Below, piece by piece: positions 1 through 60,505 of a stretch of DNA of 64,000 bases (the stretch's first letter is position 1; each line of letters begins with the position of its first letter). The notes beneath the pieces are model-generated. The model made no database searches. It saw only the letters and a program-made list of their open reading frames with translations, and was not told the origin of the DNA. Both the position numbers and the translations under genes were made by a program. Source of the DNA: Microcaecilia unicolor (lineage: Eukaryota); assembly GCF_901765095.1 (NCBI RefSeq), contig NC_044034.1:62626339-62690338 (forward strand), read 5' to 3'.

Positions 1-48
1 AGAAAATTTAGAAGGTATTTTGAGTATTGATATGTCTACCATTCCTCT

Positions 49-636
49 ATGCTCGTGGCCAAAATTCAGTCTTACCAGCTCTACACGAGCATACACATGC
101 GGAACAATGTGCGGCAGTTGGCGGGCTTGGTGGACAAGCTCCCTCCTGAGCAAGCCAAGCCATTTCAGGAGGTGGTCAGGCAGCTGAAGGCGTGCAGAAA
201 ATTCCTGGCCAGAGGGGTGTATGACACCTTTGATGTTGCGTCCAGGGCCGCTGCTCGAGGTGTGGTGATGTGCAGACTCTCATGGCTGCGTGCCTCCGAC
301 CTGGAGAATAGGATCCAGCAGCGGATTGCGGACTCGCCTTGCCGTGCGGATAATATTTTTGGAGAGAAGGTCGAACAGGTGGTAGAGCAGCTCCACCAGC
401 GGAATACCGCTTTCGACAAGTTCTCCCGCCAGCAGCCCTCAGCTTCTACCTCCACAGGTAGACGTTTTTATGGGGGAAGGAAGACTGTTCCCTACTCTTC
501 TGGCAAGCGTAGGTACAATCCTCTTTCTCAACAGCCTGCGGCCCAGGCTAAGGCCCAGCGCGCTCGCTCTCGTCAGCAGCGTGCGCCTCAGCAAGGCCCC
601 TCGGCTCCCCAGCAAAAGCAAGGGACGAGCTTTTGA
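49..636 (+). CDS. DIRS ORF1 (Gag-like), basic Q/R-rich C-terminus
   Basis: 195-aa ORF immediately upstream of and overlapping the pol ORF in a -1 arrangement. No recognisable zinc knuckle, so the call rests on position and composition only. Confidence 0.45.
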   Translation: MLVAKIQSYQLYTSIHMRNNVRQLAGLVDKLPPEQAKPFQEVVRQLKACRKFLARGVYDTFDVASRAAARGVVMCRLSWLRASDLENRIQQRIADSPCRADNIFGEKVEQVVEQLHQRNTAFDKFSRQQPSASTSTGRRFYGGRKTVPYSSGKRRYNPLSQQPAAQAKAQRARSRQQRAPQQGPSAPQQKQGTSF

Positions 637-2560
637 CTGGCTCCAGCAGAGCATAGCCGCCATCCAAGTGTCAGTGCCGGGCGATCTACCGGTCGGAGGG
701 AGGTTGAAAGTTTTTCACCAAAGGTGGCCTCTCATAACCTCCGATCAGTGGGTTCTTCAAATAGTCCGGCAAGGATACACCCTCAATTTGGCCTCCAAAC
801 CTCCAAATTGCCCACCGGGAGCTCAGTCTTACAGCTTCCAGCACAAGCAGGTACTTGCAGAGGAACTCTCCGCCCTTCTCAGCGCCAATGCGGTCGAGCC
901 CGTGGCATCCGGGCAAGAAGGGCTGGGATTCTATTCCAGGTACTTCCTTGTGGAAAAGAAAACAGGGGGGATGCGTCCCATCCTAGACCTAAGGGCCCTG
1001 AACAAATATCTGGTCAAGGAAAAGTTCAGGATGCTTTCCCTGGGCACCCTTCTCCCCATGATTCAGGAAAACGATTGGCTATGCTCTCTGGACTTGAAGG
1101 ACGCCTACACGCACATCCCGATACTGCCAGCTCACAAACAGTATCTGCGATTTCAGCTGGGCACACGTCACTTCCAGTACTGTGTGCTACCCTTTGGGCT
1201 CGCCTCTGCGCCCAGAGTGTTCACGAAGTGCTTGGCTGTAGTAGCAGCGGCACTTCGCAGGCTGGGGGTACACGTGTTCCCATATCTCGACGATTGGCTG
1301 GTGAAGAACACATCCGAGGCAGGAGCTCTACAGTCCATGCAGATGACTATTCGCCTCCTGGAGCTACTGGGGTTTGTGGTAAATTATCCAAAGTCCCATC
1401 TTCTCCCAGTACAGAGACTCGAATTCATAGGAGCTCTGCTGGATTCTCGGACGGCTCATGCCTATCTCCCAGAGACGAGAGCCAACAACTTGTTGTCCCT
1501 CGTCTCTCGGGTACGAGCGTCCCAGCAGATCACAGCTCGGCAGATGTTGAGATTGTTGGGCCACATGGCCTCCACAGTTCATGTGACTCCCATGGCCCGC
1601 ATTCACATGAGATCTGCTCAATGGACCCTAGCTTCCCAGTGGTTTAAGGCTGCTGGGGATCTAGAAGACGTGATCCACCTGTCCACGAATTTTCTCAAAT
1701 CCCTGTATTGGTGGACGATTTGGTCCAATTTGACTCTGGGACGTCCTTTCCAAATTCCTCAGCCACAAAAAGTGCTGACTACGGATGCGTCTCTCCTGGG
1801 GTGGGGAGCTCATGTCGATGGGCTTCACACCCAGGGAAGCTGGTCCCTCCAGGAACGCGATCTGCAGATCAATCTTCTGGAGTTACGAGCGGTCTGGAAC
1901 GCTCTGAAGGCTTTCAGAGATTGGCTGTCCCACCAAATTATCCAAATTCAGACAGACAACCAGGTTGCCATGTATTACATCAACAAGCAGGGGGGCACCG
2001 GATCTCGCCCCCTGTGTCAGGAAGCCGTCAGCATGTGGCTCTGGGCTCGCCGTCACGGCATGGTGCTCCAAGCCACATATCTGGCAGGCGTAAGCAACAG
2101 TCTGGCCGACAGACTGAGCAGGATTATGCAACCTCACGAGTGGTCGCTCAATTCCCGAGTAGTGCGCCAGATCTTCCAGGTGTGGGGCACCCCCTTGGTA
2201 GATCTCTTTGCATCTCGAGCCAACCACAAAGTCCCTCAGTTCTGTTCCAGGCTTCAGGCCCACGGCAGACTGGCATCGGATGCCTTCCTCCTGGACTGGG
2301 GGGAGGGTCTGCTGTATGCTTATCCTCCCATACCTCTGGTGGGGAAGACTTTGTTGAAACTCAAGCAAGACCGAGGCACCATGATTCTGATTGCTCCTTT
2401 TTGGCCGCGTCAGATCTGGTTCCCTCTTCTTCTGGAGTTGTCCTCCGAAGAACCGTGGAGATTGGAGTGTTTTCCGACCCTCATCACACAGGACGAAGGG
2501 GCGCTTCTGCATCCCAACCTCCGGTCTCTGGCTCTCACGGCCTGGATGTTGAGAGCGTAG
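470..2560 (+). CDS. DIRS Pol: reverse transcriptase + RNase H
   Basis: 696-aa ORF. RT motifs: 'RPILDLRALNKY', 'LDLKDAYTHIP', 'QYCVLPFGLASAPRVF' and 'FPYLDDWLV' (YLDD box). RNase H motifs: 'TDASLLGWGA', 'NLLELRAV' and 'QTDNQVAMYYINKQGG'. Confidence 0.85.
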   Translation: MGEGRLFPTLLASVGTILFLNSLRPRLRPSALALVSSVRLSKAPRLPSKSKGRAFDWLQQSIAAIQVSVPGDLPVGGRLKVFHQRWPLITSDQWVLQIVRQGYTLNLASKPPNCPPGAQSYSFQHKQVLAEELSALLSANAVEPVASGQEGLGFYSRYFLVEKKTGGMRPILDLRALNKYLVKEKFRMLSLGTLLPMIQENDWLCSLDLKDAYTHIPILPAHKQYLRFQLGTRHFQYCVLPFGLASAPRVFTKCLAVVAAALRRLGVHVFPYLDDWLVKNTSEAGALQSMQMTIRLLELLGFVVNYPKSHLLPVQRLEFIGALLDSRTAHAYLPETRANNLLSLVSRVRASQQITARQMLRLLGHMASTVHVTPMARIHMRSAQWTLASQWFKAAGDLEDVIHLSTNFLKSLYWWTIWSNLTLGRPFQIPQPQKVLTTDASLLGWGAHVDGLHTQGSWSLQERDLQINLLELRAVWNALKAFRDWLSHQIIQIQTDNQVAMYYINKQGGTGSRPLCQEAVSMWLWARRHGMVLQATYLAGVSNSLADRLSRIMQPHEWSLNSRVVRQIFQVWGTPLVDLFASRANHKVPQFCSRLQAHGRLASDAFLLDWGEGLLYAYPPIPLVGKTLLKLKQDRGTMILIAPFWPRQIWFPLLLELSSEEPWRLECFPTLITQDEGALLHPNLRSLALTAWMLRA

Positions 2561-2562
2561 AC

Positions 2563-3597
2563 TTTGCCTCTTTGGGTCTGTCAGAGGGTGTCTCCCGCAT
2601 CTTGCTTGCTTCCAGGAAAGATTCCACTAAGAGGAGTTACTTCTTTCTATGGAGGAGGTTTGCCGTCTGGTGTGACAGCAAGACCCTAGATCCTCGCTCT
2701 TGTCCTACACAGACCCTGCTTGAATACCTTCTGCACTTGTCTGAGTCTGGTCTCAAAACCAAATCTGTAAGGGTTCACCTTAGTGCAATCAGTGAATACC
2801 ATTACCGTGTGGAAGGTAAGCCGATCTCAGGACAGCCTTTAGTTGTTCGCTTCATGAGAGGTTTGCTTTTGTCAAAGCCCCCTGTCAAACCTCCTACAGT
2901 CTCATGGGATCTCAATGTCGTTCTCACCCAGCTGATGAAACCTCCTTTTGAGCCACTGAACTCCTGCCATCTGAAGTACTTGACCTGGAAGGTCATTTTC
3001 TTGGTGGCAGTTACTTCAGCTCGTAGAGTCAGTGAGCTTCAGGCCCTGGTAGCCCAGGCCCCTTGCACCAAATTTCATCATAACAGAGTAGTCCTCCGCA
3101 CTCACCCTAAGTTCTTGCCAAAGGTTGTGTCGGAGTTCCATCTGAACCAGTCAATTGTCTTGCCAACATTCTTTCCCCGTCCTCATTCCTGCCCTGCTGA
3201 ACGTCAGCTCCACACATTGGACTGCAAGAGAACATTGGCCTTCTATCTGGAGCGGACACAGCCCAACAGACAGTCCGCCCAATTGTTTGTTTCTTTTGAT
3301 CCCAACAGGAGGGGAGTGGCTGTGGGGAAATGCACCATATCCAATTGGCTAGCAGATTGCATTTCCTTCACTTACACCCAGGCTGGGCTGGCTCTTGAGG
3401 GTCATGTCACGGCTCATAATGTTAGAGCCATGGCAGCGTCGGTAGCCCACTTGAAGTCAGCCACTATTGAAGAGATTTGCAAAGCTGCGACGTGGTCATC
3501 TGTCCACACATTCACATCTCATTACTGCCTGCAGCAGGATACCCAACGCGACAGTCGGTTCGGGCAGTCAGTGCTTCAGAATCTGTTCGGGGTTTAG
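2563..3597 (+). CDS. DIRS tyrosine recombinase (phage-integrase-like YR domain)
   Basis: The frame of track ORF 1708..3597 continues directly after the pol stop. Motifs 'LSESGLKTKSVRVHLSAI', 'VAVTSARRVSEL' (Arg box) and 'HTFTSHY' (C-terminal His/Tyr region) are typical of DIRS/Ngaro YRs. The part of that ORF upstream of 2560 overlaps RNase H out of frame and is not considered coding. Confidence 0.7.
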   Translation, partial: FASLGLSEGVSRILLASRKDSTKRSYFFLWRRFAVWCDSKTLDPRSCPTQTLLEYLLHLSESGLKTKSVRVHLSAISEYHYRVEGKPISGQPLVVRFMRGLLLSKPPVKPPTVSWDLNVVLTQLMKPPFEPLNSCHLKYLTWKVIFLVAVTSARRVSELQALVAQAPCTKFHHNRVVLRTHPKFLPKVVSEFHLNQSIVLPTFFPRPHSCPAERQLHTLDCKRTLAFYLERTQPNRQSAQLFVSFDPNRRGVAVGKCTISNWLADCISFTYTQAGLALEGHVTAHNVRAMAASVAHLKSATIEEICKAATWSSVHTFTSHYCLQQDTQRDSRFGQSVLQNLFGV

Positions 3598-3750
3598 GAT
3601 CCAACTCCACCCCCCAAGGCCCATGTTTTATTCTGTTCCAGGCTGCACTCTCAGTTAGTTGGAAAAACTGTTAGGTCAATCTCAGTTATGTCCTCGCCGT
3701 TGCGAGGCCCAATTGACCATGTTTGTTGTTTTGAGTGAGCCTGGGGACTA

Positions 3751-23900: not shown

Positions 23901-25129
23901 GTAAGTAAAGGCCTAACTTCCAGTTCTTCTGGGTATTGGGTTTTTAGGAATCAGATTGCCTTTCTGAAGAAGTGGTTGGTTCAAAAAAGAGAGGCAATAT
24001 GGATCTGTAGATGAAAGCGGTCAGAAGAGCATAACGGATCACAGTGAAGTTCAAAACAGAGCAAAGCTTTATTGGAAAATAAAGCTTTGCTGTGTTTTGA
24101 ACTTCATTGTGATCCGTTCTGTTCTTTCTAAAGAAGTGCCGTCTCAGTGAGACTTAAAGATGGACAGGAGGAAAAAGGCTTTGCTTATTGCAAAGGAAGA
24201 AGGGAGTTCAAAAGGTAGACAGTAAAAGAAAAAGGGTTGAGGAATCAAAGTGATCAGAGAGCACAGGATAAGTAAGGGTATGTAACAGTTTTAGGGATGA
24301 AATTTAGAAAGGAACAGATGAGATCAAGACCTTCAAAACAGAGAATGCGGAAGGATCAATTTAATATAAAGATGTTTGGAGAACAGGGAAAACAAAAAAC
24401 AGACGTGCAGGAGAAGGAAATGCTTACTACTGCATTCTGAATGAATTCCAAGGTAGCAAGGTAAGAAATGAGTGAACCAGAAAAAAGGTAACTACATTAG
24501 TCAATGTGAGAGAGGACTGGAACGTCATAGGCGTAGCCAGGTTTTGATGTCAGGGGGAGCAAACGTTTGTAAAGTAGTCACCAGTTGGTGTCGGCTAGTG
24601 TTGTCACTCAGGTGGGGTGGCTGTGGCAATGATTTAACAGTGGCTGCCTTTTTTGTGTCCCGCCTATGAGGAAAATAGGAAGTTACATCAGGAGGAGGGA
24701 TGCAGCAGAGAGCAGGCAGCCTGTCGTCTTAACTACAAGTAAAAATATTCAAATTGTGACCATCACCTCAGGGACTACACAACCACTGTTATACTCCTTC
24801 CACTGCTAGACACTTTTAAAAATTAGATGGGCTTTTGTTTTTATGGTGACTGTACAGGATGTAGAGACCAGTAGTCCCGAGCATTTTTACTTTGGGTAAC
24901 AAGGGCAATCAACCCCATAGCCTACTTTCAAATAGGGCCAGAAACTTTGTGAAATAACACAAAATCGTGCATGAAGACACTCAAAACTTATACTGAAAAC
25001 TTACCACACCATAACAGCCCTAACTCACTTATAAAAAGACAGTGACAAATATTATATTGGGCCCTAGAGCACCAATGTACCTGCTACTTGGAAACTGGCA
25101 CAAACACTACATGCTAGCACAGGGGTGGG

Positions 25130-25255
25130 CAGCCCAGTTGAGTTGTCAGGATTTCCTCAATGAATATGTTTGAGATCATTCATTGGGGAAATCCTAAAGA
25201 CCAGACTGGGTTGAGGCCCTCGAGGACTGAGGTTTCCCACCCCTGTGCTAGCAGA
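25130..25255. mobile_element. short palindromic MITE with 'gctagcacaggggtgggcagc' TIR
   Basis: 'tgctagcacaggggtgggcagcccagttgag...ggtttcccacccctgtgctagc'. Internal 'ggatttcctcaatgaatatg...cattcattggggaaatcc'. Confidence 0.4.
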
Positions 25256-35496: not shown

Positions 35497-37050
35497 TTTT
35501 TTTTATTATTATTTTTATTGAATTTACAATTTTACAAGCATACACTTGAATCAAGCAATATCGAGCTAATATTTTTCCAATCATAATATTTGAACAATTA
35601 AAGAAAGGAATTAATATAAAGAATTTCCTAAATTATTCCAGGTATTACTTAAAGTAAATATAGCTCAGCCTCAGACCACTATTAATAGTAGAGGGCTGTA
35701 AAAATAATAGGAGAACAAAAAGAAGCATTTATTTATAGGAAATATGGCCTGGTCAATTGCACATCGTTTCTCATTAATACAACTTACGATGGAAATTTAT
35801 TTGGTTAAACTTTTCTGATCCAGGAAAAATTTGAGCTGATCAGGCTCGATGAAGACATACTTATTATTCATATAATAAACAATACATTTGCAAGGATATG
35901 TCAACATGAACTTTGCTCCTATAGCTTTAGTCCTTTCTCTTAAAGCCAAGAATAATTTTTGTCTGTCCTGAGTTGTTTTAGTCACATCAGGATATATCCA
36001 TATCCTGGCCCCACAGAAAAAAGTCAAAGCATTTTTAAAGTACATTTTCATCAGGGAATTCAAGTCCTGTTCGAAGACAAATGAAACCAGGACAGATCTT
36101 CGAGTCTTTATATCTGATAGTGACTGTTCTAAAATTGTAGAAATATCCAGGGGTTCTTTCTCTTGTTCTTGCTCTAAAGAAACTACATTTTTCTCATCTT
36201 CCACTGATTTTATTGAATTTGGTAAGTAATAAATCTTATTAATTGGAGGCAACAAGGAAGATGAGTAATGAAGTATTTCAATGAGGTATTTCTTAAAAAG
36301 TTCAAGAGTGGAGATTCCAGAAACAACTGGGAAATTCAGTATTCTCAGATTCAATCTCCTATTATAATTTTCAATCTGATCAATTTTTCGGTTTATTATC
36401 ATATTATCTTTCATCACTGCTGTTGTCATTGATTTGAAATTTATTAAGTCCGTTTGGACCTGAGATATTTGAGATGTCGAGTCACTTTTCAACTGTTCAA
36501 ACGCAGTAGATAAGGAGTCAAGTTTACTCACTATTGAAGCAGTCTCTAAAGCTGTCTTCCTCGAAGCCAAAGTCAGTTCTTGAATCGCTTCCCAAATCAA
36601 TTCCAACGTCACCACCTGGGGAACTTTCCGTTCCCAGCTTGTTGTCTCAGCTTCTCGGGGCCAGCTACCGCCGAACGAGGAGTCGTGATCGCCGGTTTTC
36701 GCGGCTCCTTCAGCTCACCCTTTTCAAAAGCTGGTCGCGGTGGAGGGTTGATTTCTGGCGGAGACAAAGATGTTTCAAACCCTTGGGGCGTCGATGCTCC
36801 TTCATCGGCGGCCCCTGCAGGGGTTACCACGCCAGCTTCCGGTGCTCGACTCGTTGTGAAGCGGTCTATCGTTAGCTGTACCGGTGAAGATGTAAGACTC
36901 ATCGACGGTTGAATTCTTACCAGACCTTTTCTCTTGGTATGTGGCATTATTTCATTTGTATAATTTCAAAAAGATTAAGAGACCAGCCAAACGCGACCTG
37001 ATCACACACGAGTCGTGACCGCCATTTTGACACGCCCCCCTGTAAAAGGT
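35497..37050 (-). mobile_element. ORF1-only L1-derived retroposed unit (HAL1-like): short 5'UTR, L1 ORF1p-like ORF with one frameshift, 3'UTR, A-rich tail
   Basis: ORFs 36609..36947 and 35797..36615 have a coiled-coil region plus 'ENYNRRLNLRILNFP...' (L1 ORF1p RRM motif). The A-rich 3' tail reads 'ttttttttattattatttttatt' on the plus strand at 35497-35520. A 16-bp target-site duplication flanks the unit. Confidence 0.6.
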
Positions 37051-45446: not shown

Positions 45447-45721
45447 GTACAGTGCTGAAGTCCACTTTTTTTATGTTGATTTTTAAAAAAAATCATCTTT
45501 ATTCAGTTTATAACAAAAAGAAGCACATATCAGTAAAGAAACAAAACAAAGTATGTATCCAAAAAGCAAATACCCCAACCCACCCCACCACCCAACCTCT
45601 ACTAACAGCTATTAGTGCATACCCATATGGTTTTTAACCATTACCATAATAAATATAGTTAATGGCAGGGCCGTAGCCACGGGTGGGCCTGGGGTTTTGG
45701 TTCAGGCCCACCCAGCAGTGG

Positions 45722-46060
45722 AGGCAGCAGGCTGAACTCCGATCCCGCATCTGCCTCCCTCTCTCTCACGGCAGCGCTTCCCAAACGCTGCCCACCGCCG
45801 CCACGATCGCAGGATTTACCTCCCTCCGTCTCAGCACTCAGCAGCAGTGGTAGCGAATCATACACGCTGCCTCCTTCTAACCCGGAAGCGGCAGAGGAGA
45901 CGCTTCCGGGTTAGAAGGAGGCAGCATGTATGATTCGCTACCGCTGCTGCTGAGTGCTGAGACGGAGGGAGGTAGATCCTGCGATCGTGGCGGTGGTGGG
46001 CAGTGTTTGGGAAGCGCTGCCGTGAGAGTGAGGGAGGCAGATGCGGGAACGGAGCTCTGC
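45722..46060. repeat. near-perfect long palindrome (~2 x 165 bp arms, centre ~45896)
   Basis: Left arm 'ggctgaactccgatcccgcatctgcctccctctctctcacggcagcgcttcccaaacgctgcccaccgccgccacgatcgcagg...' matches the reverse complement of 45900-46060 with only a few mismatches. It generates mirrored near-identical ORFs 45659..45865(-) and 45926..46162(+). Confidence 0.85.
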
Positions 46061-46109
46061 CTGCACTGTAAATTTTTTTTGGGGGGAGAAGAGGGCTCCG
46101 GGCGGGCAG

Positions 46110-46900
46110 GTGGAATCGCAGGACATGGATGGGAGCGGGAGGGGCGAGAGGATAATCGCTGATGGCTGGAGGGAGGGGACAGGGGAGAAAAGAGAATTGC
46201 TGGGTATGGTATAGATGGATAGAGGGGGGCAGGGGCAAGAACAGAATTGCTGGGTATGGCTGGATAGGGGCAGGGCAGAGAGGAGAATTGCTGGGTATGG
46301 TATAGATGGATAGAGGGGGGCAGGGGCAAGAACAGAATTGCTGGGTATGGCTGGATAGGGGCAGGGCAGAGAGGAGAATTGCTGGGTATGGTATAGATAG
46401 ATAGAGGGGGGCAGGGGCAAGAACAGAATTGCTGGGTATGGCTGGATAGGGGCAGGGCAGAGAGGAGAATTGCTGGGTATGGATGAATGGAGGGGGCAGG
46501 GGAGGGAAGAGAATTGCTGGGGATGGATGGATGGAGGGGACAAGGGGAGAGAGAAGAGAATTGCTGGGTATGGATGGTTAGAGGGGGCAGGGGAGAGAAA
46601 AGAATTGCTAGGTATGGATGGCTGGAGGGGAGAGGAGAGTTGCTGGACATGCGTGGATGGAGGGGAGGAAATAGGAGATAGGAAGGTTGCTGGACATGGG
46701 TGTATGAAGGGGAGGGCAGGGGAGAGGAGGGTTGCTGGACATGGATGGAGGGAAGGACAGGGGAGAGGAGGGTTGCTGGACATGGATGGAAGAGAGGGAA
46801 GGGAGAGAGAAGAAATGCTGGATATGGATGGAGGGAATGGAAGAGTGAGGAAGGAGATGAGATGAGGGAAAAGGAAGAGAGGAGAAAAACTGCACATGGA
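46110..46900. repeat. minisatellite (~45-50-bp units, first three as perfect 97-bp higher-order repeats)
   Basis: 'gagaattgctgggtatggtatagatggatagaggggggcaggggcaagaacagaattgctgggtatggctggataggggcagggcagagag' three times, then degenerating units '...gttgctggacatggatgga...'. ORFs 45877..47130, 45938..46897 and 46470..46865 are artefacts. Confidence 0.8.
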
Positions 46901-47734
46901 TGAAGAAAATAGGCAGAAGCTGGATCCACTGGACAGTCAAGTCTGCGGAGGACCCAGCTTTTACTTATGGATATAGAGCAAGAAATGAAGAAGAAAGGAG
47001 GAAAGTAAAGAAATAAATGGAAAGGAAGCCCTGGAAACAGAGTTAAGAGGACAGATAGCAGCAGAATCGGATACTGGGCCAGCATGTTCAGAAAAACAGT
47101 CACCAGACAACAAAGGTAGAAAAAAATCATTTTATTTTCGTTATAGTGTTTGGAATATGTCCACTTTGAGAATCAGGTGCACAACATTAAAAGTTTATAT
47201 TTATTTACTTATTTTTGGCATTTTATCCCACATTAAACATGAATTAAATTGGAACCTGGGATCATTTAATTTTTTTTTCCTGGAGAGAGTAATGCATTGC
47301 CGCCCCCCCCCCCCCCCAGGCTCTCTCCCCGGCTATAGCCAGCCCTGCAATTTTGAGGGGAGGTGCACAGGTGGACACGGGGGGGGGGGGGGGGGGGGGG
47401 GTGCAGAGGTGGACCGGGGAGAGAGCCTGTTGTTAAACATTTACCAACACACCACTGTCTAGTGCCCACCCATCCAACCTGTTGGCCCACCCAAAAATTG
47501 ACTTCTGGCTACGCCACTGGAAGTTGATGGGAGAGGGAGGATATACATTTTCATGTTTTAGATTAGACATAATTTTTAGTTTGTTGTATTTTAATGTTTT
47601 TATAGTGCTGTATACTGCAAATGGGTAAATGGGATATAAGCATTTTAAATAAATTAAATAATTGTCAGAACTCCCTAATTCTCTTATTTGTCCTGTTTAT
47701 CCATCTTGAATAGATAGTCCAGTGGTTCCCAAAC

Positions 47735-47935
47735 CTAGTCCTGGGGGCACCCCAGCCAGTCAGGTTTGAAAGATACCCACAATGAATATTCATGAGAGAC
47801 ATTTGCATGCAATAGAGGCAGTACATTCATATCTCTCATGAGTATTCACTGTGGGTATCTTTCAAACCTGACTGGCTGGGGTGCCCCCAGGACTAGGTTT
47901 GGGAAACACTGAGATAGTCCCTTCTCAATATGGCT
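47735..47935. mobile_element. palindromic hAT-type MITE (TIR 'CAGTG(G/T)TTCCCAAACC'), 8-bp target-site duplication 'AGATAGTC'
   Basis: 'tagatagtc|cagtggttcccaaacctagtcctggg...cccaggactaggtttgggaaacactg|agatagtcc'. Confidence 0.6.
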
Positions 47936-52039: not shown

Positions 52040-52235
52040 GTGGCCACTAGACCAGTGTTTCCTAAGTCCTGTCCTGGAGTACTCCTTGCCAGTTAGGTTT
52101 CAGGATATCTACAATGATTATGCATGAAACAGATTTGCCTATAATGGAGTCAGTGTATGCAAATCAAGTTCATTCATATTCATTGTGGATATCCTGAAAA
52201 CCTAACCGGCAAGGGGTACTCTATGACTGGACTTG
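52040..52235. mobile_element. palindromic hAT-type MITE (same family as 47735), 8-bp target-site duplication 'CACTAGAC'
   Basis: 'gccactagac|cagtgtttcctaagtcctgtcctgg...ggacttgggaaacactg|cactagacc'. Confidence 0.55.
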
Positions 52236-52677
52236 GGAAACACTGCACTAGACCACCAAAGCACTTAAAGGTAGACCGGGGGAGTCTTCAGATGGTGGGA
52301 AGACGGAGGGGTTGTGGTCGGGAGGAGCTGCATTCTGCTGGGGGTGGCAGTGCTGTTTTCGGTTTTGTCTTTGCTTTCAGCTGAAACCCAGTGGCAAATT
52401 TCAGCTGCTGATTCAGTTTTGGTTGAAACCAAGAACCCCAGTTTCGGTCACCCTCAAGATCTAGTATCATGAACCTTCTGCTTGAACATTTCCCCTACTT
52501 TGTCACTGCAATGGAAGGAGATACCTTTGCAGTGCCTAGGTTTCCTACTGTATTATACCAAAGAGTGCTGGTATGACTTTCATTCCAAATGGCGCGTTTG
52601 ATTGCTAATTGTTGCAATTTGTGTACTTCTCTATTTTTGAATTAGAAAGAAAGCATGGGACAGGCACGTGGTGTCAC

Positions 52678-53100: not shown

Positions 53101-54285
53101 GGAAGAGGAGGCGATGGTGGATGCTGTGGATGGGCAGACTGGATGGGCCATTTAGCCTTTATCTACCTTCATTTTTATGTTTCTATGCAGAAAGCCAGCC
53201 TCATGGTTGAGCCTGCACTCTACCATGAAATTAGTGCTTCATAAATACTGCAGCATGCTATAAATTAATGAGCATGCAAATTATGGTAGTAATAGACACC
53301 TGATTGCTAAATGTCAACTTTCCTGTCGGGGGGGGGGGGGGGGGGGGTCCTGAGCAGTGATCGGTTCATGCACTGACAGGATGGGTGACATTTTAAAATA
53401 AAAACACAAGCATGCTGCGTCATTTCACGTTGGCCCCATGCCCCCCTCCCCACTTGATGTACTAATAAACATTCACCTCAACCCAACCTTTTCCCTCCTC
53501 CTCCAAAAACGTATCCCTAGTGTCTAGTAGCATCTCCCCTCCCGGTAGAATGGCCCTCCTCTCTCTCCACCACACTTCCAAAAAATTCCCTGGTAATCTA
53601 GTGTGATACCCCACCCCATGACCCCTTGCCTGGGACCCTCCCCAGACCTCGTGCATTAAGTGAGGCAGGAGCAAAACCCATTTGCTCCTATCTACGGCAT
53701 TGCCATCTTCAAAATGGTGGCTTGATGCACTGGATGCAGTCAATTTGCCATATAATGTTTTGGAAGTGGGAGTTAGATTGGGAGGAGGCTACTAGACTAC
53801 CAGGGCAACTTGTTTTTTTAATATTAAAGGAAGGGAGAGTTCAGGTTGGGGATTCTCACTGCAGAAAGCAATCCGGGAGTGTTGGGATTAGAGTGAGAGA
53901 GGGGGTGCTGATAGACGCCCACTCCTCTCAACAAACCTTTCTACACTGCCCCAGGCCTGGAAAAAAGTTTCCCATGCACAACATACGTCAAACTTTTTTT
54001 TTTTTTGTTAATGACCACATTACTATGCATTTTAATGCAGTGTGCAGTAATGGTTTCCACGCAGGTTTAACAGAAGCATTTGTGTGTTCCTCTGGAGGAC
54101 TCTAGGAGGCTATTTTCTAAAAGCACATACACACATATGTTGTCTTAAATACCTACAACTTGTTGACTATTATATTATGTATCAGATGTTTGCCATTATC
54201 TTTATTGGTATATAACATAACAGGTAATAAGCACAACTTGCGAAAGTACAATAGTAATTAACGTAGATCCCTAGACCCCACTCCA

Positions 54286-54490
54286 GTGGCGTAGCTAGGT
54301 GGGGTGCCAGGGGAGCTGCCTTTCCCCCAAACGGAGTTCTGCCAGCGCCTATTTTTTTTGTTGTGCAGCACTGAAAATGTGCGCCGGCACCGGCCGAAGT
54401 CCGCTCTCTCTCCCCCTGCGCCATCAACCTGGCTGAACCGGGCTATGCTGCCCCACCCCCACCCTTGGATTCCCACCCCTGCAGTGTGTT
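54286..54490. mobile_element. 5' end of a third copy of the 'CAGTGGCGTAGC' hAT-like element family (3' end not identified)
   Basis: 'cagtggcgtagctaggtggggtgccagggg...gcgccggcaccggcc...' resembles the 60091 copy ('...gacaccggcacctgcgc...'). Confidence 0.35.
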
Positions 54491-54942
54491 CCATATCATT
54501 GTATAGTCTCTATCAAAGTTAAGTCCAAAGTCAAGAAAAACTAATACAGCCATAATAGTGGCATCTTTCAGTCTTAATTCCGAATTATTAAAGAAAACAA
54601 ACCGCACATGGGCACTCGATGTATGTAAGGCATCCAAATGCGCAAAAAGTGCTTCTTAGCTTTTTAACCTTTGAGATTGACTGACCTGCGCTCCATATTA
54701 AGGAGTTTGTGATCTGAATTTGACATTGAGTAAGGGTGGGCGGGTCAGAGCGAATCCATTGAAGCAATATGCAGCACTTGACGATCAAGGTTGCCTTACA
54801 AAGAAATAAAACTGGAAACTTGTGTACCCTTCACAATTGTGGATGTATCATCCAAAAGAAAAGCTTTGGTCCCCTCGGTGTCGCAACCTGGCTACGCTTC
54901 TGGATGGACTCTAGGACCACCTCAAATATACCCCCCCGTTTA

Positions 54943-55058
54943 CTAAGCCACGCTAGTGGCTGCCATGCATTACTGCCGACACAGCCCATTCACTTTGAAT
55001 GGGCTGCGTCGGCATTGCTGTGCGGCAGCTGGTAGCGCAGCTTAATAAACAGGGGGGA
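54943..55058. mobile_element. short MITE with 'CCCCCCGTTTACTAAGCC' / 'GCTTAATAAACAGGGGGG' TIRs
   Basis: Internal 'cagcccattcactttgaatgggctg' hairpin. Relatives at 57545-57700, 59436-59585 and 60030-60505. Confidence 0.45.
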
Positions 55059-59814: not shown

Positions 59815-60010
59815 GCACAGTGGTTCCCAAACCTGGTCCTGGAGGCACCCCAACCAGTCAGGTTTTCTAGATATCCACAATGAATATTCATGAGAGAGAT
59901 TTGCATACCAAGGAGGCAGTACATGCCTCATTGTTAAAGCTTTTTGGGACCCCTATTCATTGTGGATATCCAGAAAACCTGAGTGGCTGGGGTGCCTCTA
60001 GGACCAGGTT
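59815..60010. mobile_element. palindromic hAT-type MITE (third copy of the 47735 family)
   Basis: 'cagtggttcccaaacctggtcctggaggcacccc...ggggtgcctctaggaccaggtttgggaaccactac'. Confidence 0.5.
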
Positions 60011-60029
60011 TGGGAACCACTACACTAAC

Positions 60030-60339
60030 CCCCCCCTCGTTTATAAAGCCACGCAGCAATGCTGACATAGCCCATTCAAAGTGAATGGGCCAGTGGCGTA
60101 GCCACAGGTGGGCTTGGGTGGGCCAGGGCCCACCCATTTATGGCTCAGGCCCACCCAACAGTAGCACATGTTTAGTGCTAACTGGTGGAAATCCCAAGCT
60201 CCACCAGCTGAAGATTTTCCCCTGATGGTAACAAAAACGCTACTCTCCGTGACACCGGCACCTGCGCATGCTCAGTTTTCAGAGCATGCCTGCTGCCAAG
60301 GTAGAAAGAAGCGTTTTCCCACCAGCTGAGATCATTTTT

Positions 60340-60370
<31 letters not shown>

Positions 60371-60505
60371 GGGGGGAGGAGAACACTTGGTGCCCAACCA
60401 ATTCTTGCCTAGGCCCACACAAAATCTGTTGTCTGGCTACGCCCCTGGAATGGGCTGTGTCGACATTAGCGCACCGGCAACCACTAGTGCGGCTTTGTAA
60501 ACGGG
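60030..60505. mobile_element. MITE of the 'GTTTA(C/T)AAAG' TIR family, split by a nested insertion
   Basis: 'ccccctcgtttataaagccacgcagcaatgctgacatagcccattcaaagtgaatgggc' ... [insert] ... 'gaatgggctgtgtcgacattagcgcaccggcaaccactagtgcggctttgtaaacggggg'. Confidence 0.5.
60091..60447. mobile_element. 357-bp non-autonomous hAT-like element ('CAGTGGCGTAGCC...GGCTACGCCCCTG') with perfect 8-bp target-site duplication 'GAATGGGC', nested in the MITE above
   Basis: Target-site duplication at 60083-60090 and 60448-60455. TIRs are seen directly. The interior has T15 then G27 homopolymers (60335-60376). Confidence 0.65.

Follow-up and report, generated by a model that had tools for sequence, protein, structure and literature searches.

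A nested non-autonomous hAT-like element with a perfect 8-bp target-site duplication and Tip100/Pegasus-like termini

Introduction

The termini of hAT transposons invariably have G as their third base, and Pegasus counts among these transposons, with 8-bp duplications (PMC1131882). The inverted repeat of Tip100 is 11 bp long and reads CAGGGGCGGAG (PMC12511174). MITEs of the silkworm described as "Pegasus-like" are flanked by 8-bp duplications, and CAGTGGCGTACCTA is an example of their inverted repeats (PMC2997013).

Here we describe a 357-bp element in a stretch of 64,000 nucleotides, the whole of which was analysed and is called the window below. From its sequence features we consider it very probable that this element belongs to the hAT superfamily of DNA transposons as a non-autonomous, MITE-sized and non-coding member, with a Tip100/Pegasus-like lineage as the probable affiliation. 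This reading is drawn from its CAG...CTG termini, its 8-bp duplication, its clustered subterminal GTGGGC/GCCCAC repeats and its relatives outside the window. The original prediction of a hAT-like non-autonomous element was thus upheld, by the duplication, by an empty site and by outside relatives which themselves carry 8-bp duplications. Features and their coordinates are collected in Table 1.

Table 1. Positions of the 357-bp element, its parts, its host MITE and related sequences in the window
Feature	Position	Strand	Remarks
Non-autonomous hAT-like element, nested insertion	60091..60447	+	357 bp; 56% G+C
Left terminal inverted repeat CAGTGGCGTAGCC	60091..60103	+	13 nt
Right terminal inverted repeat GGCTACGCCCCTG (CAGGGGCGTAGCC on minus strand)	60435..60447	-	
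Left subterminal repeat cluster	60104..60158	+	GTGGGC at 60108, 60118; GCCCAC at 60128, 60149; small palindromes
T15 then G27, directly adjoining, inside the element	60335..60376	+	T15 60335-60349; G27 60350-60376
Right subterminal region	60390..60434	+	GTGCCCAACC at 60390-60399; GCCCAC at 60413-60418
Target-site duplication GAATGGGC, left copy	60083..60090	.	8 bp; once in paralogous empty site
Target-site duplication GAATGGGC, right copy	60448..60455	.	8 bp; perfect match to left copy
Host MITE, GTTTAY[A/T]AAGCC family	60039..60502	.	99 bp without insert and one duplication copy; palindromic
Paralogous uninterrupted host-MITE copy	54938..55050	.	113 bp; reads ...GCCCATTCACTTTGAATGGGCTGCGTCGG...; acts as empty site
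1,854-bp member of the element's family	45666..47519	+	homologous over ~50 bp at left end, ~60 bp at right end
619-bp element, inverted repeat CAGTGGCGTAGCT / CAGAAGCGTAGCC	54284..54902	+	shares ~13-16 nt of terminus only
Solo terminus CATAGGCGTAGCCAGGTT...	24526..24565	+	by eye like right end of 54284-54902

Results

Ends and interior of the 357-bp element

The element begins with CAGTG... and, on the opposite strand, with CAGGG..., which gives CAG...CTG ends with G at position 3 in both. These ends agree with the YARNG start and third-position G that serve as the criterion for short hAT inverted repeats. The two inverted repeats are complementary at 12 of 13 positions, and at 14 of 15 when one extra base per side is included. 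The coordinates and sequence statements of the original prediction for positions 60030-60505, including the T15-G27 pair, proved correct on recheck.

The hexamers GCCCAC and GTGGGC occur five times within the element, compared with 0.44 per kb over the whole window (28 in 64 kb). When a cluster was defined as at least three of these hexamers within 120 bp, clusters were confined to two places in the window, the left end of this element and that of the 1,854-bp copy described below. In the 1,854-bp copy and in the metagenome relatives, the right-end GCCCAC is as far from the terminus as it is here. Clusters of short subterminal repeats near both ends are usual in hAT elements, although they are not strictly defining, and the clustering at the left ends is the pattern that would be expected of subterminal transposase-binding repeats.

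Reading frames of at least 75 aa overlapping the element gave no protein-family match. With a length below about 800 bp, inverted repeats, a target-site duplication and a non-coding sequence, the element has the structure of a MITE. MITE families characteristically comprise many near-uniform copies per genome; the interior of the 357-bp element has no second copy within the 64-kb window. No role is evident for the long T15-G27 tract, which is unusual compared with known non-autonomous hAT elements. G-rich runs are present also in the 1,854-bp copy and the metagenome relatives, and such runs are perhaps simply inherited and slippage-prone.

Insertion into an older MITE

The element is located just 3′ of the central loop of its host MITE, which is bounded by GTTTATAAAGCC (60039) and GGCTTTGTAAAC (60502). 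The filled site reads ...GACATAGCCCATTCAAAGTGAATGGGC(357 bp)GAATGGGCTGTGTCGACATT..., and the uninterrupted paralogue reads ...GACACAGCCCATTCACTTTGAATGGGCTGCGTCGGCATT..., with the octamer present once and in direct orientation. After removal of the 357 bp and one octamer, host MITE and paralogue align straight over the junction; they share 68% identity overall and are near-identical at the centre. Because the paralogous MITE contains GAATGGGC once and aligns across the junction, the octamer was single before insertion, and because the element landed within an older palindromic MITE, its insertion is younger than the host. The paralogous empty site thus reinforced the nested, 8-bp-duplicating insertion into a GTTTAY MITE that had been predicted. 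It follows that the nesting can serve as a relative-age marker, placing the hAT-like element after the GTTTAY host MITE.

The host MITE is itself palindromic, with GCCCATTC...GAATGGGC at its centre, so that flanking repeat and inverted termini might be imagined as a chance product of this palindrome, formed without any transposition. This explanation is already refuted by the empty-site comparison, where the octamer appears singly and in direct orientation and the alignment crosses the junction cleanly. Moreover, shuffled sequences give a mean of 0.04 such structures per window, and the same terminus recurs in 49 foreign contigs (both below). We therefore give a chance origin practically no credence and retain a transposition event.

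Target preferences of hAT elements are weak, nTnnnnAn for the Ac group and nnnTAnnn for the Buster group. The octamer GAATGGGC fits neither.

Copies of the host-MITE family, at 54938-55050, 60039-60502, 59430 and 57681, have a C-run as their left flank and a G-run as their right one, and because of these runs the family may in truth extend further at both ends. If so, the flanks TAA/TAA and ATA/ATA would correspond to a 3-bp duplication, which hints at a PIF/Harbinger-like family.

Chance expectation and other hAT-like MITEs in the window

A scan for 13-nt inverted repeats with at most two mismatches, 50-3000 bp apart and flanked by perfect 8-bp direct repeats, covered the entire window. Four structures were recovered, whereas 100 shuffles gave 0.04 on average and never more than 1, an excess of about 100-fold. 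Each of the four (25120-25245, 47720-47911, 52053-52245 and 60091-60447) has CAG at its start and CTG at its end, which indicates that the source genome harbours several hAT-like MITE families. The structure of the 357-bp element is accordingly credible, and by the same token routine.

Two further types of hAT-like MITE were observed. The first is a family of ~190-205 bp with long inverted arms starting from CAGTGGTTCCCAAACCTGG (47720-47911, 52053-52245 and 59818-60022). Two of its copies have perfect 8-bp duplications (AGATAGTC and CACTAGAC); the copy at 59818-60022, situated 17 bp upstream of the host MITE, has 68-nt arms that are 94% complementary and is without a clean duplication. The second, a third hAT-like MITE type in the window, is the 126-bp element at 25120-25245, with termini CAGGGGTGGGCAG / CAGGGGTGGGAAA and the perfect 8-bp duplication TGCTAGCA.

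Relatives of the element within the window

The original prediction also held that the same termini delimit a 1.85-kb copy. Both subterminal regions of this 1,854-bp copy are indeed homologous to those of the 357-bp element, with ~78% identity over the alignable left end. Homology includes GGTGGGC beside the left inverted repeat, TCAGGCCCACCCA, and GGCCCAC(A/C)CAAAA ~30 nt from the right end. Its left inverted repeat nevertheless carries two mismatches and a perfect 8-bp duplication is lacking, since the flanks GTTAATGG and GAAGTTGA differ. A 7/8 match between GTTAATGG and GTTGATGG appears only with an outward shift of 3 bp on the right side; it is marginal, and we did not accept it because such a match has an estimated chance of ~0.03-0.06 over the 169 offset pairs.

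The interior of the 1,854-bp copy is unrelated to that of the 357-bp element. It comprises a hairpin with 164-nt arms (45727-45890 and 45901-46064, 95% complementary, 10-nt loop) and, 3′ of this hairpin, a G-rich minisatellite with a 41/91-bp unit in ~10 or 5 copies (46173-46842). A C15/G24 palindrome is also found inside this copy.

A third copy had been proposed to start at 54286. The corresponding 619-bp element starts at 54284 and matches the 357-bp element only by its inverted repeat, without target-site duplication and without GCCCAC subterminal repeats; we excluded it from the family for this reason, and it is probably at best a sister family. The solo terminus at 24526-24565, for which no partner end was found, is treated together with it as one putative sister family. 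The suggestion that the family is present in several size variants consequently holds for the 357-bp and 1,854-bp copies, which are related, and not for the 619-bp element.

How recent are these elements? They could represent one young, abundant and still-active family comprising the four window elements with CAGNGNCGTAGC termini. The terminus motif, allowing at most two mismatches, occurs seven times in the 64-kb window where 0.63 are expected (its core GCGTAGC lies in the context CAnnnGCGTAGC in 6 of 6 occurrences), and the 357-bp copy combines a perfect duplication with long, unbroken T15 and G27 runs. We nonetheless find a single young family unlikely, as the 357-bp and 1,854-bp copies have diverged to the ~78% given above at the alignable left end and have unrelated interiors, the longer copy has two mismatches in its inverted repeat and no clean duplication, and the 619-bp element has the inverted repeat alone in common. 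The elements with CAGNGNCGTAGC termini look rather like a set of old or diverged subfamilies that was joined by a single insertion of more recent date: only the 357-bp copy, with its perfect duplication, its position in an older MITE and its long unbroken homopolymers, looks comparatively recent. It is also the only one of these window copies with a clean 8-bp duplication.

Relatives in metagenome contigs

We searched three collections with a 23-nt terminus pattern, CAGKGSCGTAGCCACRGGTGGGC. No contig matched in the viral collection and none in 596 Gb of bacterial and archaeal genomes, and 49 contigs matched in the JGI metagenomes (L001-L049). We take the JGI samples concerned to be marine gutless-worm symbiont metagenomes. 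The contigs are eukaryote-like in appearance, with a piggyBac-type transposase frame in one and TTAGGG repeats in one.

The first ~45 bp of the 357-bp element are 82-87% identical to these relatives. Outside this portion the contigs have no similarity to the window, and the interiors are unrelated. The shared ~45 bp take in the 13-nt inverted repeat as well as the GGGTGGGC...GCCCACCC palindrome next to it. In the aligned relatives the layout is conserved: the inverted repeat is directly followed at the left end by GGGTGGGC...GCCCACCC, and GCCCACCC recurs ~30 nt in from the right terminus.

By pairing of ends, 16 independent complete elements of 212-409 bp were delimited in the metagenome contigs. 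Their flanking octamers match at 8 of 8 positions in five elements, at 7 of 8 in two and at 6 of 8 in three, while for control octamers, sampled 12 bp farther from the elements, agreement is 4 of 8 positions at most. One of the five perfect cases sits in a TTAGGG array and is uninformative. The matches at 10 of the 16 elements (6-8 of 8) indicate that elements with this terminus repeatedly make 8-bp duplications. The original prediction would be refuted by other copies lacking 8-bp duplications; by this criterion the other window copies do not support it, and the support comes from the metagenome relatives. The duplications of the relatives, ATCTCTGA, GTGTAAGC, GATAGAAA and TGTCATCT, have no clear consensus, the sites being few.

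Two peculiarities of these contigs were noted. In L049 a MITE relative (936-1235) lies within a TTAGGG telomere-like array and is adjoined by a 521-aa piggyBac-type transposase frame (1344-2906; DDE_Tnp_1_7, E = 1e-51). A variant terminus, CAGTGCCGTAGCCACGGGTGGGCAAC, is found in L007, L022, L032, L038 and L045, always preceded by the flank cagtgaccacca; this is either a single locus that was recovered from five metagenomes or an element lying within a larger repeat.

Search for a transposase

Pfam searches of the 190 reading frames of at least 75 aa in the window detected no hAT domain. Only reverse-transcriptase and integrase-type matches were obtained, in agreement with a window filled by DIRS, CR1/L2 and L1-like elements. 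A DIRS-like retroelement occupies positions 1-3600, with reverse transcriptase/RNase H at 386-2557 and a tyrosine-recombinase-like frame at 1648-3594; its best protein matches are from turtle and Pleurodeles, at ~50% identity, and a look-up of the exact DIRS frame gave no match. An intact L1-ORF1-like frame of 272 aa is present on the minus strand (35797-36615), and its database relatives are only two proteins of the caecilian Geotrypetes seraphini, at 44% identity. These nearest matches, the L1-ORF1-like frame being the most informative, point to an amphibian and possibly to a caecilian as the source of the window.

For the 49 contigs, the 150 longest non-redundant frames among 169 of at least 95 aa were likewise free of hAT domains in Pfam. 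The contig whose terminus is closest to that of the 357-bp element, L029, has no transposase within 2.8 kb. A crude search of six-frame translations with a hAT C-terminal motif retrieved only a short degenerate fragment in L014, L020 and L026; we rejected this fragment as a partner, as it is degenerate and not flanked by the termini of the 357-bp element. Among the frames searched in the window and the 49 contigs, no transposase had termini matching those of the element.

A Tip100-type C-terminal motif matched 3,016 proteins. Among the matches listed, the hAT dimerisation domain was present in 120 of 120, and most were short, plant-like fragments. Three contigs of Tip100-type matches led to one complete element of 4,128 bp, L051:4327-8454, which encodes DUF4371, a FAM200/ZBED5 RNase-like domain and a hAT dimerisation domain, and has the inverted repeat CAGGGCCGGCTC and the perfect 8-bp duplication TTTATTAG. 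Its first 8 nt are those of the left end of the 1,854-bp copy; its terminus is related but different. The JGI contig that contains it also has a zf-RVT reading frame.

Duplications of 8-9 bp are made by P, Merlin, Zisupton and some Mutator-like elements too and are thus not unique to hAT. The 357-bp element could then be a non-autonomous member of another 8-bp superfamily (P, Merlin, Zisupton, Novosib or Mutator-like), which duplication length alone cannot separate from hAT and which would be compatible with the lack of a hAT transposase tied to its termini. Several features speak against such an origin. The CAG start and the G at position 3 are hAT-like (PMC1131882), the right terminus agrees with the Tip100 inverted repeat at 10 of 11 positions (PMC12511174), and the first 10 bases are the same as those of one of the Pegasus-like MITEs of the silkworm (PMC2997013). 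The combination of short inverted repeats with subterminal clusters is the usual hAT layout, and three more CAG...CTG MITEs with 8-bp duplications are present in the window. An origin in one of these other superfamilies is in our view very improbable, and membership in hAT is preferred.

Discussion

We propose that a transposase supplied in trans would recognise the 13-nt inverted repeats together with the clustered subterminal GTGGGC/GCCCAC repeats. The enzyme would excise the 357-bp element and integrate it at cuts staggered by 8 bp. The target would have been the centre of the older palindromic MITE, which before insertion presumably read ...AAAGTGAATGGGCTGTG..., and repair of the gaps would have duplicated GAATGGGC on either side of the insert. 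In this scheme, we infer from established hAT biology both which kind of enzyme acted and that it worked by cut-and-paste chemistry.

That a ~45-bp terminus should be so nearly the same in unrelated hosts is mildly unexpected and could reflect either conserved transposase-binding ends or horizontal transfer. If the window stems from a caecilian-like amphibian and the contigs from marine gutless-worm samples, it is conceivable, but in our estimate a long shot, that all these ends belong to one Tip100/Pegasus-like hAT lineage whose transposase-binding ends stayed near-unchanged across animal phyla or which moved horizontally between them. Should a transposase be found, the lineage would be a candidate for a study of horizontal transfer or of end conservation, as terminus and subterminal motif recur in unrelated hosts.

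Comparison with known systems

A literature search for the exact inverted repeat of the 357-bp element gave no match, and searches with looser repeat strings led only to the silkworm MITE paper (PMC2997013) and the Tip100 paper (PMC12511174). The element is a new or unnamed example of a very well-known kind, ordinary for repeat-rich vertebrate genomes. It has little significance outside repeat annotation, where its exact termini can seed a repeat library for the source genome.

Identity with Tip100 of Ipomoea purpurea amounts to 10 of 11 positions, between CAGGGGCGGAG and the right terminus CAGGGGCGTAG (PMC12511174). This likeness is confined to 8-11 nt of terminus, which makes membership in the clade no more than a lead. 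Tip100-type transposases carry DUF4371 and a hAT dimerisation domain, and none is linked to the family of the 357-bp element.

The Pegasus-like BmMITE-13 to -16 of Bombyx mori are 263-431 bp long, with inverted repeats CAGTGGCGTACCTA or CAGTGGCGGATTA and an 8-bp duplication whose sequence is not fixed (PMC2997013). Their first 10 nt are identical to those of the 357-bp element, and the likeness does not extend beyond 10-12 nt. These MITEs and Pegasus itself (Anopheles gambiae) reside in insect hosts, unlike the element described here.

Similarly to the 357-bp element, the non-autonomous hAT elements Ds1 of maize and Mar of Drosophila have short inverted repeats starting with CAG and an 8-bp duplication. 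They are also non-coding, a few hundred bp long, furnished with subterminal repeats and represented by size variants that share only their ends, whereas the internal sequence of the 357-bp element is unlike that of any described element compared. The MITE family of the JGI contigs L001-L049 shares with it a 23-nt terminus that is identical or nearly so, and a GCCCAC ~30 nt from the right end.
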